NCBI RefSeq assembly: GCF_053078305.1
Contig: NZ_CP166879.1
Length of the DNA: 64,000 nucleotides
Direction: 5' to 3' (one strand)
Made by a program: the position numbers and the translations under genes. Under the pieces are notes generated by a model that searched no databases, was not told where the DNA came from, and saw only the letters and a list, made by a program, of their open reading frames with translations. Shown piece by piece: positions 3,018-15,890 of this stretch. Positions within the stretch are counted from its first letter, which is position 1. The number at the start of each line of letters is the position of its first letter.

Positions 3018-3377
3018 TCAGAGAAACTTTGAATAGTGACCGTCGTCAGGCTCAGCAGAACGCCGTATGGTACGCTCCCGCCAGCGGATAAATAGCACAG
3101 ACGGATGCAGTGTCAGCGGGCCGGAACCACTACTGCCTGCAGGAGCTGGTGCAGGCTTAAAGAGCGGTACATCAAACAGGCGCGTATACCGCTGTTCAAA
3201 CCATGCCAGAGGGCAGGAAGAAAGCTGGTTGTCGCTGTCATGACGTATCAGCACTTCACAGCTGAATTCAGGATTAACCAGCGCCACAGAGGGCGAGGCT
3301 TCTATTAATCGGATAATCGTGACCGTCCAGCCACGTTCATGCCGCCAGCGTTCGCCGGGGTGCGGATAATTACGCAT
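3018..3377 (-). CDS. Hypothetical island protein (119 aa from MRNYPHPGERW)
   Basis: ATG at 3377 is preceded by GGAGGTGAAC, a strong SD. The ORF-track start at 3407 has no SD. It overlaps the end of the Icd-like gene by 8 nt. Confidence 0.6.
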   Translation of the reverse strand: MRNYPHPGERWRHERGWTVTIIRLIEASPSVALVNPEFSCEVLIRHDSDNQLSSCPLAWFEQRYTRLFDVPLFKPAPAPAGSSGSGPLTLHPSVLFIRWRERTIRRSAEPDDGHYSKFL

Positions 3378-3546
3378 GTTCACCTCCGCAGGGAATGCGC
3401 CCGGCAAAGCTCAGTACACAGTCCGGGGCAAGTCTGCGCCGCGCTGACCGCTCATTATCTGCGGTGAGCCTTAACATCACAGGACGGGCATTGCGTTGAC
3501 TGCGGTTGATCGCCGCAAATAACCAGGTACACTTCTGTTTAGCCAT
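3370..3546 (-). CDS. Small protein (58 aa) resembling host cell division inhibitor Icd-like proteins of P4-type elements
   Basis: MAKQKCTWLFAAINRSQRNARPVMLRLTADNERSARRRLAPDCVLSFAGRIPCGGEHA. ATG 3546 is preceded by GAGGT. This is the C-terminal part of a spurious 244-aa ORF in the track. The Icd-like call is from remembered family sequences, not a search. Confidence 0.55.
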   Translation of the reverse strand: MAKQKCTWLFAAINRSQRNARPVMLRLTADNERSARRRLAPDCVLSFAGRIPCGGEHA

Positions 3547-3575
3547 CTTCGTTACCTCATATAGCGGATTGGTCA

Positions 3576-3610
3576 GAAGCCCGGTTAGTGTTGCTGCACT
3601 GTCGGGCTTC
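3576..3610 (-). other. Stem-loop in the 5' leader of the icd-like/primase operon
   Basis: GAAGCCCG (3576-3583) pairs with CGGGCTTC (3603-3610) around a 19-nt loop. There is no following U-run, so it is not a typical terminator. Confidence 0.4.
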
Positions 3611-3622
3611 GCACTCACAAGG

Positions 3623-3712
3623 TGAATCGCACCTTTAATTTTAAAGCTACCCTTAAGTGAATCGCACTTCAAGCTTTTTATTATCATTTTTTTTGCGTAT
3701 ACTGAATCGCAC
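3623..3712. promoter_or_regulatory. Divergent promoter/operator region with three direct TGAATCGCAC repeats
   Basis: Exact 10-mers at 3623-3632, 3658-3667 and 3703-3712. The third abuts a TATACT -10 candidate (3698-3703) for the plus-strand RHH gene. On the minus strand the repeats overlap candidate -35/-10 elements of the icd-primase operon. Confidence 0.6.
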
Positions 3713-3733
3713 CTAACGCGAGGAGATCCAGTA

Positions 3734-4030: not shown

Positions 4031-4246
4031 TCACTCACCACGAGAGGCATATATTTGCTCTTGAATCCAGTGATCAACTTCGCTTTCAACGAATGAAATT
4101 GCACGAGTTCCTATTTTCACCGGACGGGGAAATGTATTGTTTGCAAGCTGTTTGTAAAGCCATGCCTTGCTACGCTGAACGCGTCTTAATACCTCTTTTG
4201 CTGAGATAAGAGTCTGATTATCTGAAAAGCTGTTTGCATATTCCAT
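4031..4246 (-). CDS. alpA: AlpA-family (MerR-like HTH, Vis/excisionase-type) phage regulatory protein, 71 aa
   Basis: MEYANSFSDNQTLISAKEVLRRVQRSKAWLYKQLANNTFPRPVKIGTRAISFVESEVDHWIQEQ is the typical AlpA signature (FP.P.K.G.R...W...EV..W). ATG 4246 is preceded by GGAG. The ORF-track start at 4291 is an extension. Confidence 0.85.
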   Translation of the reverse strand: MEYANSFSDNQTLISAKEVLRRVQRSKAWLYKQLANNTFPRPVKIGTRAISFVESEVDHWIQEQIYASRGE

Positions 4247-4530
4247 CTTGTTACTCCGTGTTCTACTTAAGTTCACGGTGACTTTAAACACTGGGAAAAA
4301 GTGATTCTAGTGATAATGGAATCTATTAAGACAAACATTGATTCTATTGAAAAACAATAATCTCCACTGAAAAAAAGAAGTAATATTCATATGAAAGAAC
4401 ACGGAAAGAAGGAAATGCACAAAACAATAAAATTAATAAAATTCATATAGATAGGATGGAAAATCAAAAAATCATACGTCAAAAGGTATTATTACATTTT
4501 AACGATTCATATTACCTAGGAATTAGCACA

Positions 4531-4607
4531 GTATTACACCGTATTACATCGTATTACCCCCTATAGCCCCTTAGAGCCTCTTGTGGCCCTTCTATTGAGA
4601 GATAGCC
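4531..4607. repeat. 10-bp-phased repeat tract: three tandem GTATTACNNN units followed by RGCC motifs on the same 10-bp register
   Basis: GTATTAC at 4531, 4541 and 4551. AGCC/AGCC/GGCC at 4565, 4575 and 4585, with another AGCC at 4604. Degenerate ATTAC copies lie at 4491 and 4511. The tract lies just 3' of the 212-codon ORF and about 290 bp upstream of alpA. Confidence 0.8.
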
Positions 4608-4622
4608 AGAAAATTAATAAAT

Positions 4623-5261
4623 TCACTCTCCGTATTTTATAATGTCTTTCCCCAGCTTTATTTTCTTATAAAACGTAGCTTTTTTAATCCCTTTCATTAG
4701 AATCTCATTCTCATTACAAAAAGAAACAATATCATTATATATAACACTATTATCGCTATAACTTACCTTTCCATGTCTCTTAAGCAATTCAATTAGTAAA
4801 TAAATTAATTTACAACTATAATTATCCTCATCATCTTTTCTGTACTGCCCTCTACCATTACTCCTTAATTTTTTACCAACTTCACATAATTCACTTCCTC
4901 CTAACGTCATTAGAATATCGCTCCAATCTTTATTTTTTACCTGTTGTCGTAATGCGTTCTCAATTCTCTCCTTAATCTCCACAGGTACAATACCTTCCCT
5001 CTGAAAGATATAAGCAGCAGTTAATAATAAGTTCGCCTCCACTTTTTGCGTGGCGGATACGTTTTTATATTCATTAATTAATTGTAGATTTCTGGTTATT
5101 GCCTTTCTTAATCTAATAACCTCTTTTAATTGAACCTCAGTCAATTCATCATTTTCGGTATCATAGTCAAAACCATTCATAGCAAGCGCCACTTCGTGTG
5201 GCGTTATGTAAGTTAACCTATTAAAATAAAACAAATTATTATCAAATTGAGTATTGTTCAT
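4623..5261 (-). CDS. Orphan AT-rich protein of unknown function (212 aa) with a possible C-terminal helix-turn-helix
   Basis: An ORF in the track. GGAGAG lies 8 nt upstream of ATG 5261, which is only 29 nt after the int stop. Hand-counted lines give about 22-35% G+C. No enzymatic motif recognised. The C-terminal GIKKATFYKKIK resembles resolvase/Hin-type HTH recognition segments. Confidence 0.75.
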   Translation of the reverse strand: MNNTQFDNNLFYFNRLTYITPHEVALAMNGFDYDTENDELTEVQLKEVIRLRKAITRNLQLINEYKNVSATQKVEANLLLTAAYIFQREGIVPVEIKERIENALRQQVKNKDWSDILMTLGGSELCEVGKKLRSNGRGQYRKDDEDNYSCKLIYLLIELLKRHGKVSYSDNSVIYNDIVSFCNENEILMKGIKKATFYKKIKLGKDIIKYGE

Positions 5262-5290: not shown

Positions 5291-6553
5291 TTATTTTCCA
5301 TGCATACGCGCAAAATCATATGGTGTGATAGATCCATTCTTATTAGCATCAATATAATCAGCCCACCATTGCAACATTAATCTTCTTTCTTCAAGATATT
5401 CGGAAGTATGCATATATGAACCTTTCACGTTTTTTCGTTCAACGTGGCTTAACTGTCTTTCAATGGCATCATCATTCCATAGTTTCGACTCACTTAGCGC
5501 ACCACGCGCCATAGTTCTAAACCCATGACCACATACTTCAGTTTTCGTATCATATCCCATTACACGTAAGGCGTTATTTACTGTATTTTCACTCATTACT
5601 TTTTTAGGATCATGATCGCTGGGAAATATAACCTCACCTTTACCACTCAAGGCATGTAAACGTTTAAAAATATCAAATGCTTGTTTGCTAAGCGGAACAA
5701 TATGTTCAGTTTTCATCTTCATCCCACGCTCAGAGTGTTTTACGCCGGGAATAGGCTTACGAATTCCGGGTATTGTCCACTCGCTTCGTTCAAAGTTAAC
5801 CTCACTCCAGCGAGCAAAACGCATCTCACTTGAACGTATAAATGTGAGTAGCGTTAATTCAACGGCAAGCCGTGTCATTAGTCGCCCTTTATAGCGTGAT
5901 AGTCTTTCAAGAAGCTCAGGAATTCTTTTTGGGGGTAGTGCTGGGTGGTGGGTTGCTTTAACGCTTAAAAGCGCTCCAGCCATATCGCATGCAGGATTTG
6001 ATTCAAGCAGGTCATTCTGCACACCAAAACGCATAATTGCGGTTACGCGCTGCATCAGTCGCTGCGCGACATCATGTTTACCTGCCGTATCGACAGCTTT
6101 GATTGGATTGAGAAGCTGGCTGGTTCTCAACGTTCTGGCATCGATTTGACCTATCGAGGGGAAAATATACTGCTCAAGTGTCAGCAGAACACGACGGCTA
6201 TGATCTTCGCTCCAAGTAAGGTTACTTGCGTGCCATTGCCTTGCGATAGTTTCAAATAAATATGCCCCCTCAATTTCAGCTTGTGCCCCCTTTTGCTCAG
6301 CTTTGGGGTCAATACCCTGAGACAACAATTTCTTTGCTGCATCGCGCTTACCCCGCGCTTCAGCCAAAGTGACAGTCGGGTATACACCAAAAGCGAGTCG
6401 ATCTTCCTTTTTGTCAGAGGGGCGGCGATATTTCATGCGCCAGTACTTAGAACCTTTAGGGGAGACCTCAAGATACAAGCCGCCTCCATCAGCCATTTTA
6501 TAAGCTTTCTCTTTCGGCTTTGCGGTCTCTATCTGGCGAGCGTTGAGTTTCAT
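5291..6553 (-). CDS. int: P4-type tyrosine integrase (420 aa from MKLNARQIETAKPKEKAYK)
   Basis: The N-terminal Arm-DNA-binding signature (KLNARQIE..AKP..K.Y...DGGGLYL.V...GSK.W...Y) is present, as are the catalytic R (FIRSSE), HGFR and C-terminal Y (GSYMHTSEYL). It is adjacent to the tRNA 3' end. The ORF-track start at 6574 is a 7-codon extension. Confidence 0.92.
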   Translation of the reverse strand: MKLNARQIETAKPKEKAYKMADGGGLYLEVSPKGSKYWRMKYRRPSDKKEDRLAFGVYPTVTLAEARGKRDAAKKLLSQGIDPKAEQKGAQAEIEGAYLFETIARQWHASNLTWSEDHSRRVLLTLEQYIFPSIGQIDARTLRTSQLLNPIKAVDTAGKHDVAQRLMQRVTAIMRFGVQNDLLESNPACDMAGALLSVKATHHPALPPKRIPELLERLSRYKGRLMTRLAVELTLLTFIRSSEMRFARWSEVNFERSEWTIPGIRKPIPGVKHSERGMKMKTEHIVPLSKQAFDIFKRLHALSGKGEVIFPSDHDPKKVMSENTVNNALRVMGYDTKTEVCGHGFRTMARGALSESKLWNDDAIERQLSHVERKNVKGSYMHTSEYLEERRLMLQWWADYIDANKNGSITPYDFARMHGK

Positions 6554-6607
6554 TTTGGGGGCACAAATCCTCATCGAATTGACATGCCCCCGATTATGCC
6601 CCCAAAA
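6553..6607 (-). promoter_or_regulatory. Inverted repeat and GGGGGCA repeats in the int leader
   Basis: TTTTGGGGGCA (6553-6563) is the exact reverse complement of TGCCCCCAAAA (6597-6607). There is an extra TGCCCCC at 6585-6591. The proximal arm ends on the A of the int ATG. Confidence 0.55.
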
Positions 6608-6717
6608 GAGGGTAGACTACAAGAGACCAACAAAGACCATTAGATACCATACTTTACTTGTTTTTTAAGGATTTTTTTGTATTTAGAGACTTCAGGAAAC
6701 GTCAAAAGAAGTGTTAA

Positions 6718-6802
6718 TGGTGCCGAAGGCCGGACTCGAACCGGCACGTATTTCTACGGTTGATTTTGAATCAACTGCGTCTACCGATTTCGCCACTTCG
6801 GC
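6718..6802 (-). tRNA. leuX: tRNA-Leu (anticodon CAA)
   Basis: The reverse complement reads GCCGAAGTGGCGAAATCGGTAGACGCAGTTGATTCAAAATCAACCGTAGAAATACGTGCCGGTTCGAGTCCGGCCTTCGGCACCA. This is a class II tRNA with a long variable arm, a CAA anticodon and an encoded CCA. It is identical to my memory of K-12 leuX. Confidence 0.97.
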
Positions 6803-8800: not shown

Positions 8801-9832
8801 ATGCAAGTGAAAACACAGTCCTGCGTTGTTGCGGGCAAGAAAACTGTTGCCGTTACCGAGCAGACGATAGATTGGAATAATAATGGAACATTAGTACAAA
8901 TAACCCGAGGTGGAATTTGCGGTTCCGATTTACATTATTATCAGGAAGGAAAAGTAGGTAATTTCATGATAAAGGCACCGATGGTGTTAGGTCATGAAGT
9001 TATCGGTAAAGTTATTCATAGCGACTCATCAGAATTACATGAAGGGCAAACGGTAGCCATTAATCCGTCTAAACCGTGCGGTCACTGCAAATACTGCATT
9101 GAACATAACGAGAATCAGTGTACAGAGATGCGTTTTTTTGGCAGTGCCATGTATTTCCCTCATGTTGATGGTGGCTTTACCCGTTATAAAATGGTCGAAA
9201 CGTCGCAATGTGTCCCTTATCCGGCCAAAGCTGAAGAAAAGGTTATGGCTTTTGCCGAACCTTTAGCCGTCGCGATTCATGCCGCACATCAGGCCGGCGA
9301 GTTACAGGGCAAGCGAGTATTTATTTCTGGTGTTGGGCCCATTGGCTGCCTGATTGTCAGTGCTGTGAAAACACTGGGGGCCGCGGAAATTGTCTGTGCC
9401 GATGTGAGTCCCCGTTCCCTTTCGCTGGGCAAAGAGATGGGGGCGGATGTGCTCGTAAACCCACAAAACGACGACATGGATCACTGGAAAGCGGAAAAAG
9501 GCTATTTCGATGTCAGCTTTGAAGTGTCCGGTCATCCTTCATCAGTGAATACCTGTCTGGAGGTCACTCGTGCACGCGGCGTAATGGTGCAGGTAGGTAT
9601 GGGAGGCGCGATGGCAGAATTCCCAATGATGACGTTGATTGGTAAGGAGATTTCACTCAGAGGCTCTTTCCGTTTTACCAGCGAATTTAATACCGCAGTG
9701 TCATGGCTGGCGAATGGCGTTATCAATCCACTGCCTTTACTGAGTGCTGAATATCCCTTCACTGACCTGGAAGAGGCGCTACGTTTCGCCGGTGATAAAA
9801 CCCAGGCAGCAAAAGTCCAGCTTGTTTTCTAA
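8801..9832 (+). CDS. idnD: L-idonate 5-dehydrogenase
   Basis: 343 aa Zn-ADH/sorbitol dehydrogenase family (GICGSDLHYY, GHE). Operon position is consistent. Confidence 0.95.
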   Translation: MQVKTQSCVVAGKKTVAVTEQTIDWNNNGTLVQITRGGICGSDLHYYQEGKVGNFMIKAPMVLGHEVIGKVIHSDSSELHEGQTVAINPSKPCGHCKYCIEHNENQCTEMRFFGSAMYFPHVDGGFTRYKMVETSQCVPYPAKAEEKVMAFAEPLAVAIHAAHQAGELQGKRVFISGVGPIGCLIVSAVKTLGAAEIVCADVSPRSLSLGKEMGADVLVNPQNDDMDHWKAEKGYFDVSFEVSGHPSSVNTCLEVTRARGVMVQVGMGGAMAEFPMMTLIGKEISLRGSFRFTSEFNTAVSWLANGVINPLPLLSAEYPFTDLEEALRFAGDKTQAAKVQLVF

Positions 9833-13144: not shown

Positions 13145-14647
13145 ATGAGCGACCCCCTGTTAATTGCACGCACGCCGGACACAGAACTGTTTTTACTGCC
13201 GGGAATGGCTAACCGTCACGGGCTGATTACTGGCGCAACGGGGACGGGTAAAACCGTTACGCTGCAAAAACTGGCTGAGTCTCTATCGGAAATCGGCGTG
13301 CCGGTGTTTATGGCTGATGTGAAAGGCGATCTGACCGGTATCGCGCAGGCAGGAACGGCGTCGGAAAAACTGCTCACAAGGCTTAAAAATATCGGCGTCA
13401 ATGACTGGCAACCGCATGCCAATCCGGTGGTGGTGTGGGATATCTTTGGCGAGAAAGGCCATCCGGTGCGGGCGACGGTTTCGGATCTGGGGCCGCTGTT
13501 GCTGGCACGACTGTTGAATCTCAACGATGTGCAATCTGGCGTGCTGAATATCATCTTCCGCATTGCTGATGATCAGGGGCTGTTACTGCTCGACTTTAAA
13601 GATTTGCGGGCGATTACCCAGTACATCGGCGATAACGCCAAATCCTTCCAGAATCAGTACGGAAATATCAGTAGCGCATCGGTTGGTGCCATCCAGCGCG
13701 GGCTGTTATCGCTGGAACAGCAAGGCGCAACACACTTTTTTGGTGAGCCGATGCTGGATATCAAAGACTGGATGCGCACCGATGCCAACGGTAAAGGCGT
13801 TATCAATATCCTCAGCGCCGAGAAGCTTTATCAGATGCCGAAACTGTACGCCGCCAGTCTGCTGTGGATGCTTTCAGAGTTGTATGAACAATTGCCGGAA
13901 GCGGGCGATCTGGAGAAACCAAAACTGGTGTTTTTTTTCGACGAGGCACATCTGCTGTTTAACGATGCCCCGCAGGTACTGCTGGATAAGATTGAGCAGG
14001 TGATAAGGCTTATTCGCTCAAAAGGCGTGGGCGTCTGGTTCGTTTCGCAAAACCCGTCTGATATTCCGGATAATGTGCTCGGCCAGCTCGGTAATCGCGT
14101 TCAACATGCTTTGCGGGCTTTTACGCCCAAAGATCAGAAAGCGGTAAAAGCTGCGGCGCAAACCATGCGGGCCAATCCGGCGTTTGATACCGAAAAGGCG
14201 ATTCAGGAACTGGGCACCGGCGAGGCGTTGATCTCTTTTCTGGATGCGAAAGGAAGCCCTTCTGTGGTGGAGCGTGCGATGGTGATCGCGCCTTGTTCGC
14301 GGATGGGGCCGGTGACGGAAGATGAGCGTAATGGCTTGATTAATCACTCTCCGGTGTATGGCAAGTACGAGGATGACGTGGACCGGGAATCCGCCTATGA
14401 GATGTTGCAAAAAGGCTTTCAGGCCAGTAACGAGCAGCAAAATAACCCCCCCGCGAAAGGGAAAGAGGTAGCGGTGGATGACGGCATTCTTGGTGGATTG
14501 AAGGATATTTTGTTTGGCACTACCGGACCACGCGGCGGGAAGAAAGATGGTGTGGTGCAAACAATGGCCAAAAGCGCCGCTCGCCAGGTAACGAATCAGA
14601 TTGTACGCGGGATGTTGGGGAGTTTGCTGGGGGGGAGAAGAAGGTAA
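13145..14647 (+). CDS. yjgR: DUF853 / HerA-like P-loop ATPase
   Basis: 500 aa with Walker A GATGTGKT and Walker [10 protein letters not shown]. Matches YjgR. Confidence 0.93.
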
Positions 14648-14667
14648 GTCAGGCGAGATTTGTCTTT

Positions 14668-14700
14668 GCCTGATGCGACGCTGGCGCGTCTTATCATGCC
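14668..14700. repeat. REP element
   Basis: GCCTGATGCGACGCTGGCGCGTCTTATCATGCC, a REP-type imperfect palindrome just after the yjgR stop. Confidence 0.8.
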
Positions 14701-14807
14701 CACCCCACAGCAATATATTGAATTTTAATTATTTTTCAGGAATGAACGAAGCACACTTTGCTAACAATAATAAAGGGAGCTTTCGCTCCCTTTATTCGTT
14801 CATTCGG

Positions 14808-15890
14808 TTACGATTTTCTCATTAACAGCCACAGGCTGATTAAGAAGAAGCTGGCGCTTGGCAACAGTGCGCCAATGATCGGCGGGATGCCGTAAACCAA
14901 CGTCAGCGGACCGAAGATCTGGTCCAGTACGTAGAAGACAAAACCGAAGCTAATACCGGTGACCACACGCACACCCATCGGTACGCTACGCAGTGGGCCA
15001 AAGATGAACGACAGCGCCATCAGCATCATCACCGCCACGGATAGCGGCTGGAAGATTTTGCTCCACATGTTGAGCTGATAACGTCCGGCATCCTGACCGC
15101 TCGACTTCAGATACTTCACATAGTTGTGCAAACCGCTGATAGAGAGTGCATCCGGGTCCAGCGCCACCACGCCCAGTTTGTCAGGCGTGAGGTTGGTTTT
15201 CCAGGTGCCGCTCACCGTCTGCGAACCGGTGATCTGTTTCGGATTGGTCAGATCAGATTCATCAACCTGCGACAGACGCCAGACTTTATGTTCCGGGTCA
15301 AACTTCGCAGTAGCGGCATAGCGTACGGATTGCAGACGACGATTCTCGTTAAAGGCATAAATGCTGATGCCACCTAACTCTTCGTCACCTTTAACCCGCT
15401 CAATGTAGACGAAGTTGTTGCCATCTTTCGCCCATAAGCCTTGCTGGGTAGAGAGCAACGAGCCGCCGTACATCGCCTGCGCACGGTAGTTACGCGCCAT
15501 CTGCTCGCCCTGCGGCGCGACCCATTCACCAATCGCCATCGTCAGTAAGACCAGCGGAATGGCGGTTTTCATCACCGACAGCGCAACCTGCATACGGGTG
15601 AAACCAGAAGCCTGCATCACCACCAGTTCGCTGCGCTGCGCCAGCATCCCAAGACCAAGCAACGCCCCAAGCAGAGCCGCCATCGGGAAGAAGATTTGCA
15701 CATCTTTCGGCACGCTCAGCAAGGTATACATTCCTGCGCCTAACGCGTCGTAACTCCCCTGCCCGGCTTTTTTCAGCTGATCGACAAACTTGATAATGCC
15801 CGACAGCGACACCAGCATGAACAGCGTCATCATGATGGTGGTGAAAATAGTTTTACCGATATAGCGGTCAAGTACGCCAAAAGGTTGCAT
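14808..15890 (-). CDS. lptG: LPS export ABC transporter permease
   Basis: 360 aa from MQPFGVLDRYIGK. ATG 15890 overlaps the lptF stop. The ORF-track start uses the upstream GTG. Confidence 0.95.
   Translation of the reverse strand: MQPFGVLDRYIGKTIFTTIMMTLFMLVSLSGIIKFVDQLKKAGQGSYDALGAGMYTLLSVPKDVQIFFPMAALLGALLGLGMLAQRSELVVMQASGFTRMQVALSVMKTAIPLVLLTMAIGEWVAPQGEQMARNYRAQAMYGGSLLSTQQGLWAKDGNNFVYIERVKGDEELGGISIYAFNENRRLQSVRYAATAKFDPEHKVWRLSQVDESDLTNPKQITGSQTVSGTWKTNLTPDKLGVVALDPDALSISGLHNYVKYLKSSGQDAGRYQLNMWSKIFQPLSVAVMMLMALSFIFGPLRSVPMGVRVVTGISFGFVFYVLDQIFGPLTLVYGIPPIIGALLPSASFFLISLWLLMRKS

Follow-up and report, generated by a model that had tools for sequence, protein, structure and literature searches.

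A putative helically phased array of the excisionase-operator kind upstream of alpA in a P4-like phage satellite

Recombination directionality factors (RDFs) bind operators made up of direct repeats at intervals of one helical turn, and binding requires at least three such repeats side by side; the RDFs of P2-like phages and of P4 also regulate promoters far from the att sites (PMC7498355). In P4, a site for the P2 protein Cox lies upstream of the promoter PLL and has boxes of the consensus TTAAA(G/C)NC(A/C), 10-11 bp apart; the DNA is wrapped by Cox and protected over at least 70 bp, and activation of PLL by Cox derepresses the P4 prophage (PMC3936717). The subject of the present study is a tract of phased 10-bp repeats at 4485-4607 of a 64,000-nucleotide stretch of contig NZ_CP166879.1 (RefSeq assembly GCF_053078305.1; the whole stretch is called the window below), located in the spacer between a 212-aa orphan gene and alpA of a P4-like phage satellite at tRNA-Leu (leuX). 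The tract is tentatively read, with a little short of an even chance of being correct, as a putative protein-binding, helically phased array of the excisionase-operator kind.

The P4 sequence (X51522) has three decamers, CACTTAAAGT CATTTAAAGC CACTTAAAGC, at 9176-9205, which is 146-175 bp upstream of ORF88/vis. These are labelled "ori type 2 repeat" in GenBank; they contain TTAAAG, the start of the Cox-box consensus, and by our reading the annotated decamers would be P2 Cox boxes. In the phage-inducible chromosomal islands (PICIs) of Gram-negative bacteria, AlpA activates its own expression and the helper induces alpA transcription through an unidentified factor (PMC6092414), while the PICI alpA promoter fragment reported to be helper-induced extends from -449 to +50 (PMC11773190); neither of these two papers mentions a repeat array in the alpA promoter or binding sites for AlpA. 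The initial annotation of the window, made from the sequence alone, had placed the tract in a PICI-type island. That context has to be replaced, because a sid-like gene, psu, an Ogr/Delta zinc finger, and a Zn-ribbon/Toprim/DUF927 primase are encoded, and these mark the island as a P4-like satellite.

Geometry, periodicity, and conservation of the array

The core of the tract consists of six exactly phased decamers (Table 1). The initial annotation had described these, together with looser copies of ATTAC at 4491 and 4511 and a further AGCC at 4604, and all of them were found as described. It had also recognized two different motifs, GTATTAC and RGCC; both are present and in phase, but they are better read as variants of one degenerate decamer because the units line up on the alpA-sense strand, where our own division of the sequence gives about 10-11 units: AGAAGGGCCAC AAGAGGCTCT AAGGGGCTAT AGGGGGTAAT ACGATGTAAT ACGGTGTAAT ACTGTGCTAAT TCCTAGGTAAT and onward. 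The six strict decamers and about five looser units have the same orientation and are 10-11 bp apart, with at least three adjacent. The loose copies are offset by +2 bp from the strict core (22 bp from 4511 to 4533, and 42 bp from 4491 to 4533); 42 bp is about four turns at 10.5 bp, so that the loose units follow about 10.5 bp per turn. The spacer around the tract measures 376 bp and is 69% A+T. The distances previously given, 15 nt between the tract and the stop of the 212-aa gene and about 290 bp between it and the alpA start, agree with those measured: 15 nt separate 4607 from the stop codon (4623-4625), and the strict core lies 285-345 bp, and the full array 240-360 bp, upstream of the alpA ATG at 4246.

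The tract has the strongest 10-bp periodicity in the window. Lag-10 autocorrelation over 4531-4590 is 0.72, compared with a background of 0.25 +/- 0.06 for the 64-kb window (z 7.3), and this value was reached by none of 5000 shuffles and nowhere in the 64 kb outside the tract; over 4485-4607 the autocorrelation is 0.478 (z 5.2). No other part of the window has a stronger AT/GC alternation at about 10 bp, and the output of Tandem Repeats Finder includes a period-10 repeat of 3.5 copies (score 49) as well as a second row of the same period.

The tract acts at the DNA level, because RNA structure is absent and copy-number steps of 10 bp exclude coding. A minus-strand scan of the interval from the 212-aa gene to alpA found no terminator-like site, which bears out the previous statement that no terminator hairpin separates the two genes. 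The predicted RNA fold is no better than that of shuffled sequence (z 0.03, or 0.84 for a shorter span, and -1.4 to +0.4 for relatives), and the tract has no match in Rfam; a terminator or another RNA structure was rejected for these reasons. A small open reading frame across the tract (4456-4566, plus strand, 36 aa) was also rejected, because changes in copy number shift the reading frame.

The tract-bearing spacer occurs in 204 of 5,426 complete Escherichia coli genomes, is essentially full-length in all but three, and is accompanied in the same set of 204 genomes by the same alpA allele. The number of GTATTAC copies is two in APEC E18005, N9, and loci L136-L139, three in the window and most E. 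coli copies, and six in MDK6L1 and loci L135/L152; the variation among alleles is always in whole 10-bp steps, which is the behaviour of a variable-number tandem repeat. A comparison of the window by segment was made with NCTC11023, the most divergent of the E. coli alleles examined. Identity is 86% in the promoter-proximal segment (4247-4352), 44% in the middle spacer, 56% in the loose units, 55% in the GTATTAC units, 80% in the RGCC units, and 31% in the distal segment (4591-4622), and boxes of the TAAGGGGCT type are found in NCTC11023 as well. Because the RGCC units are 80% identical, compared with 55% for the GTATTAC units and 31-56% for the flanks, the RGCC half (TAAGGGGCT on the alpA strand) is an island of conservation under purifying selection, and the GTATTAC half is labile.

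These results bear on whether the tract is a functionless minisatellite, the product of replication slippage in a non-essential spacer, with the phasing as a by-product of unit length. The presence of two, three, or six copies among close relatives, the poor conservation of the GTATTAC units, the unrelated GTATTAC-N3 tandem arrays in unrelated viral contigs, and the existence of sister satellites that manage without an array (see below) would all be consistent with such an origin. However, the RGCC half is much better conserved than its flanks and persists in more distant relatives, the units are degenerate rather than fresh identical copies, and period-10 arrays with different sequences recur at the same position in independent lineages, which makes absence of function rather unlikely. 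If the array were nevertheless inert, it would be a mere 10-bp minisatellite and would still be usable as a typing marker for the leuX island in those E. coli genomes that have it.

Homologues of the 212-aa protein, 45-66% identical, were used to retrieve the more distant relatives (L292-L295); the homologues used for L292 and L293 have the source names Erwinia tracheiphila and Yokenella regensburgei. The homologous loci from Symbiopectobacterium are degraded by insertion sequences and were uninformative. All four loci share the layout int, 212-aa gene, spacer (378-510 bp), alpA, and DUF927 primase. Their spacers have 8-10 decamers of the ATAAGGGGCT / ATAAAGGGTG type, which switch midway to TATAAACCCC / TTTAAGCCTT. 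Boxes resembling TAAGGGGCT and an alternation of AT and GC every 10-10.5 bp are common to the window and these loci, the alternation being kept despite different box sequences. The junctions in the relatives, GGGGCTAATAG or GGGGTAATAG, suggest that the GTAATAC units of E. coli (alpA-sense strand) came from slippage of the last unit; the GTATTAC units are an expansion within the E. coli lineage. That the distant relatives mainly keep the alternation of TATAA-like with GGGG or CCCC segments, and not one exact box, is also what might be expected of flexible or curved DNA that has no dedicated island protein and serves as an upstream bend or as a nucleation site for H-NS, IHF, or Fis, silencing or insulating alpA. 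The A+T content of the spacer is in keeping with this, but the conservation of the specific TAAGGGGCT-type boxes goes further than composition alone would give, and the explanation is very improbable.

Arrays of this kind recur upstream of alpA or vis. The statistic used was the best lag-10 or lag-11 autocorrelation of any 50-bp stretch between -60 and -420 of alpA/vis in independent satellite lineages, and since canonical P4-like elements have origin iterons in the same interval, iterons can add to the signal. The values are 0.78 for the window (TAAGGGGCT / GTAATAC), 0.72 for L214 (TTAGTAT, three copies), 0.68 for L164 (CGAATAGCA-type, five units), 0.67 for L167 (AGAGGCTTCT-type), 0.65 for L161 (ATTCAC / TTGCCAT-type), 0.60 for both P4 (decamers containing TTAAAG) and L165 (CTGTTAA, three copies), and 0.55 for L163 (CAATATT, three copies). 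Most of these lineages exceed dinucleotide shuffles (p <= 0.003), and in control DNA 0.6% of AT-rich satellite-locus windows, but not one of the 346 taken from the 64-kb sequence, reach a value of at least 0.6. In at least six independent satellite lineages, P4 among them, period-10 arrays with distinct box sequences lie 100-350 bp upstream of alpA/vis. In L163, a distant satellite relative, a perfect octamer (ACCTGCCA) is also repeated 15.8 times at 236-361, about 100 bp beyond the array upstream of alpA.

Iterons were one of the forms of protein-binding array proposed in the initial annotation. In that case the tract would be part of a replication origin bound by the DUF927 primase-helicase, like the type I ori repeats of P4, which are also 10-11 bp apart and upstream of vis; an AT-rich stretch adjoins the tract, as might be expected of an origin. 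Iterons were rejected because satellites with a near-identical primase do not have the tract. Satellites in IMG/VR with primases 97-99% identical share DNA with the element only from about 3581-3621 onward (the primase is 99% identical in L141-L146 and L159), and no cluster of GTATTAC or TATAGCC and no period-10 array was found in the five checked, L141, L144, L151, L153, and L157. Read gene by gene, L141 has another int and an alpA-like gene, an unrelated cargo gene, and a gap of about 100 bp with no period-10 array. The tract is thus not inherited with the primase module, the 13.5-kb island (length of the copy in strain STEC276) has no second, crr-like cluster of the tract motifs, and a role as iterons is extremely improbable. 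Since sister satellites exist without such an array, it is not obligatory.

Table 1. Positions of the array units, neighbouring genes, and related boxes in the window
Feature	Position	Strand	Sequence or remark
Strict core, six exactly phased decamers	4531-4590		GTATTACACC GTATTACATC GTATTACCCC CTATAGCCCC TTAGAGCCTC TTGTGGCCCT
RGCC decamers (three), conserved core	4561-4590	-	CTATAGCCCC TTAGAGCCTC TTGTGGCCCT; on the alpA-sense strand GGGCCACAAG AGGCTCTAAG GGGCTATAG
GTATTAC decamers (three)	4531-4560	-	GTAATAC on the alpA-sense strand; lineage-specific expansion, variable copy number
Looser units, alpA-proximal	4485-4530	-	TATTAC at 4490 and 4510
Distal degenerate unit(s)	4591-4607	-	Includes GATAGCC at 4601-4607
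Direct boxes near alpA	4302-4347	-	TGATTCTAG (4302), GGAATCTAT (4317), TGATTCTAT (4339); (T/G)GA(T/A)TCTA, start spacings 15 and 22 bp
Second 10-bp phased array, attL arm between int and the leuX core	6610-6649	.	GGGTAGACTA CAAGAGACCA ACAAAGACCA TTAGATACCA
alpA, vis-like winged-helix regulator/excisionase, 71 aa	4031-4246	-	Pfam Phage_AlpA 9e-12; PHROG "excisionase and transcriptional regulator"
212-aa orphan gene (phrog_30524)	4623-5261	-	Predicted all-alpha, possible C-terminal helix-turn-helix
P4-type tyrosine integrase	5291-6574	-	Pfam Arm-DNA-bind_3, Phage_int_M, Phage_integrase; 69% DNA identity to P4 int
tRNA-Leu(CAA), leuX, integration site	6718-6802	-	attL core at 3' end
YlcI/YnfO-family gene, 61 aa	3734-3919	+	Divergent
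icd-like gene	3370-3546	-	

Candidate ligands and mode of action

If the tract is an operator of the excisionase kind, a small DNA-bending protein of the excisionase/RDF class would bind it cooperatively, one monomer per turn, and wrap or bend the DNA. The bound array would raise or lower transcription into alpA and the downstream icd-primase operon, and derepression of the satellite would be affected. The array is the positional and architectural counterpart of the P4 Cox-box array, by which the helper P2 switches P4 on; its RGCC or TAAGGGGCT units would be a selected recognition or nucleation core, and the GTATTAC units would have been added recently by slippage, in whole turns. Cooperative binding on one helical face had already been proposed for the tract; apart from the iteron option, the proposal gains from the excisionase-type precedents (P4 Cox boxes and 186 Apl operators), from the recurrence, and from the conservation of the RGCC units. 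The candidate ligands are AlpA, a helper protein of the Cox/Apl type, the 212-aa protein, and Int; that a protein binds, which one it is, and how it affects alpA are inferences.

The array in the attL arm (6610-6649) is likely to be an excisionase (AlpA/Vis) site. This array gives the second-strongest lag-10 signal in the window, and the attL arm from int to leuX (6596-6718) is the only other 123-bp stretch in the autocorrelation range of the tract. It is kept as three copies of TGGTCT in L292, L293, and L295 and is less exact in L294. The Vis boxes of P4 are said to have been located, by Cali et al. in 2004, at the matching position. If AlpA were the ligand of both, the tract and the attL boxes should resemble each other. 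Phased weight matrices give a reciprocal best match between the two, which is weak (z ~4). Boxes at att and in the array that had been matched by eye in the window, L163, and L165 would have pointed to AlpA as the ligand; this argument was rejected, since the ungapped-alignment test showed no similarity above background either in the window or in and between the other lineages.

The three direct boxes at 4302-4347 do not vary among the alleles, and they are about 200 bp closer to alpA than the tract is. Two of the three read TAGAAT on the minus (alpA) strand, which is -10-like, and ATGGAAT versions are found at the same place in L294 and L161. They are probably the core promoter or operator of alpA and are the best candidates for a promoter-proximal operator. 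The suggestion of the initial annotation that the tract may be the control region deciding island induction is not supported. Because they are invariant along with the recognition helix of AlpA, they are better AlpA or promoter candidates than the tract. The invariant alpA leader also has a single match to the Cox-box consensus, TTAAAGTCA at 4279 on the minus strand and 33 bp ahead of the ATG; since the 64 kb has four such matches in all, this one may be due to chance.

Several results weigh against an excisionase-type operator at the tract, including the ungapped-alignment result and the much shorter distance of the invariant, operator-like boxes from alpA. The recognition helix of AlpA is identical across relatives with considerably different arrays, and the array is farther from the alpA ATG than in P4, L164, and L165. 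On the alpA strand, no sigma-70-like promoter was found beside the tract, and the tract has no match to the P2 Cox-box consensus. Among 50,697 phage records, a BLAST search with the tract had no relevant match. In IMG/VR, the pattern GTATTAC-N3-GTATTAC was swamped by chance matches, and a triple-box pattern returned only this satellite lineage and unrelated tandem repeats in giant-virus and low-GC contigs. No array is present in sister satellites whose int-alpA module is a different one. The comparison of the spacer across relatives that had been suggested at the outset did separate a conserved RGCC half from a labile GTATTAC half, but it gave no usable signal of co-variation of the array with the proteins, because the relatives hardly differ in the recognition helix of AlpA, the C-terminal end of the 212-aa protein, or the attL arm region.

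A helper protein of the Cox/Apl type is a candidate ligand from the analogy with P4 only. It has a rather improbable extension in which the array would be a sensor of the helper: the Cox/Apl-type excisionase-repressor of an infecting or induced P2-like helper would polymerise on the array and switch on alpA, the boxes would diversify to track helpers (TTAAAG in P4, TAAGGGGCT/GTAATAC in the window, and TTAGTAT, CGAATAGCA, CTGTTAA, and AGAGGCTTC elsewhere), and gain or loss of whole-turn units would tune the threshold. If this were true, the helper specificity of P4-like satellites could be read from a short DNA array.

The 212-aa protein might instead bind the repeats past its own gene, so that the tract would be an operator or roadblock that gates read-through from int and the 212-aa gene into alpA. 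The gene and the tract are always found together, in all 204 E. coli genomes with the spacer and in L292-L295; a distant 212-like gene (23% identity) is followed by a period-10 array in L161; modules with a different cargo gene have no array; and the lack of a terminator would leave alpA open to read-through. The conserved C-terminus of the protein, GIKKATFYKKIK, is modelled as two helices (predicted local distance difference test, pLDDT, >80) and by our own reading resembles a helix-turn-helix of the resolvase type. However, the helix-turn-helix tail announced in the initial annotation comes down to this sequence pattern and the two predicted C-terminal helices: the protein has no match in Pfam or PADLOC, no sequence match or significant fold match in the Protein Data Bank (PDB), and a poor model overall (pLDDT 66.6). 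Arrays are also present upstream of alpA in lineages that do not have a 212-like gene (L163, L164, L165, L167, and L214). An IS1 insertion splits the 212-aa gene of strain STEC276 (14374-15789 of locus L001), yet a 401-bp query that includes the tract (4250-4650) is matched at 100%. Control of read-through by the 212-aa protein is therefore regarded as unlikely.

Int is the remaining candidate. Low-affinity arm-type sites, with the N-terminal arm-binding domain of Int on GGGGC boxes, could link the level of Int to alpA or bridge the DNA in excision. When 13,778 positions are ranked with a weight matrix from genuine arm sites (GGGGGCA[T/C]), three in-phase tract boxes come 14th, 18th, and 22nd; all three are on the alpA strand, although these matches are not independent because the units are mutual copies. 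The attR arm AAAAGGGGCATC resembles the tract box TAAGGGGCTAT, and P4-type elements have extra arm-type copies off the core, within int. Nevertheless, the tract boxes score 6.7-7.7, compared with 12-16 for genuine arms; they are 10 bp apart rather than 12 bp as in tandem arm pairs; and they are 2.1 kb from the att core. Judged by the features of P4-type arm sites, the boxes have neither the consensus of attL, attR, and P4, nor the 12-bp pairing, nor a placement within about 200 bp of the core. The arm sites of L161 (ATGTACCA) are likewise unrelated to the boxes of the L161 array, and arm-type binding at the tract is quite improbable.

Organization of the satellite and side features

On the minus strand, the order is leuX, int, the 212-aa gene, the tract, and alpA. 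Beyond alpA are the divergent YlcI/YnfO-family gene, the icd-like gene, a DUF5375 gene, and the primase gene, which continues past the start of the window. In STEC276, the island goes on with a sid-like gene, psu, delta, a hotspot with an AAA-ATPase (defence) before attR, and a copy of the core at attR. The gene order int, alpA, primase, sid, psu, and delta differs from that of canonical P4, because sid-psu-delta follow the primase and are not divergent from vis. Just upstream of the sid-like gene, at 9037-9092 of L001, there are two copies of TGT-N12-ACA, as expected for a Delta/Ogr-dependent late promoter; upstream of alpA, no such Delta/Ogr site was found. A P2 cos site was not found in the island with up to three mismatches allowed. 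The AlpA of the window, at 71 aa, has a slightly shortened C-terminus, since relatives of 76 aa have an additional RHENH or RYEQR at the end.

P4-type Int arm sites ([AG]TGCCCC[CT]) at 6555-6607 flank the start of int and are also present near attR (L001 3820-3843). The arm weight matrix found two strong copies that were not used in training inside the int coding region, at 6282-6293 and 6261-6272; a single such copy is found within the int of P4.

The satellite has a modular make-up: IMG/VR elements (L141-L159) share the icd-to-primase block at 90-99% identity, but their int is only 40-47% identical, and their alpA-like gene is unrelated or distantly related to that of the window. The start of homology with the satellites that share the primase module (~3581-3621) adjoins three direct copies of TGAATCGCAC(C/T)T at 3623-3714, between the YlcI/YnfO-family and icd-like genes, with start spacings of 35 and 45 bp. 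The position of these repeats presumably corresponds to the early promoter and immunity region of P4. They are candidate operators for the YlcI-like protein, which looks like a ribbon-helix-helix protein by sequence. A sub-threshold Rfam match to the SymR antitoxin RNA at 3541-3613 (plus strand), antisense to the start of the icd-like gene, is probably noise (26 bits compared with a gathering threshold of 61, E 0.1).

Comparison with described arrays

The array bears on how P4-like satellites and alpA-controlled islands sense their helpers, and it is a cheap target for footprinting and reporter assays. Such work could identify the protein that controls induction and possibly a determinant of helper specificity.

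Among described systems, the PICI alpA regions of EcCICFT073 and EcCIMP1 are similar in having alpA downstream of int, which in the window element is on the same strand. PICI alpA is switched on by the helper through an unidentified inducer, whereas the island in the window differs in carrying sid, psu, delta, and a DUF927 primase. The type I iterons of P4 ori and crr are also short repeats 10-11 bp apart upstream of vis; unlike them, the tract is not co-inherited with the primase module and has no second cluster.

The arrays bound by excisionase-type proteins offer a further comparison. The sites of 186 Apl (pR-pL and attP), the lambda Xis sites X1-X1.5-X2, and the P4 Vis boxes all have, like the tract, at least three adjacent direct repeats one helical turn apart, and they are found near the first gene of a lytic or derepression operon that itself encodes a small helix-turn-helix protein of the excisionase type. 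In these systems the same boxes recur at att, whereas the similarity of the tract to the attL boxes is weak or not significant, and the arrays overlap promoters, whereas none was found beside the tract.

The Cox-box array of P4 shares several features with the tract. Both are tandem direct decamers on one helical face upstream of vis/alpA in a P4-family satellite, AT-rich and GC-rich halves alternate in each unit, and there are at least three adjacent boxes. The boxes themselves differ (TTAAAG/CNCA in P4, but TAAGGGGCT and GTAATAC in the tract), as does the distance to the start codon, which is 240-360 bp for the tract and 146-175 bp for the P4 boxes. P4 has a TGT-N12-ACA between the array and vis, which we take to be a Delta/Ogr site, whereas the window element has none, and the genes upstream are the 212-aa gene and int for the tract but the divergent sid operon for the P4 array. 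By analogy with these systems, the tract is best filed as a candidate new member of the known class of Cox-box/RDF operator arrays.

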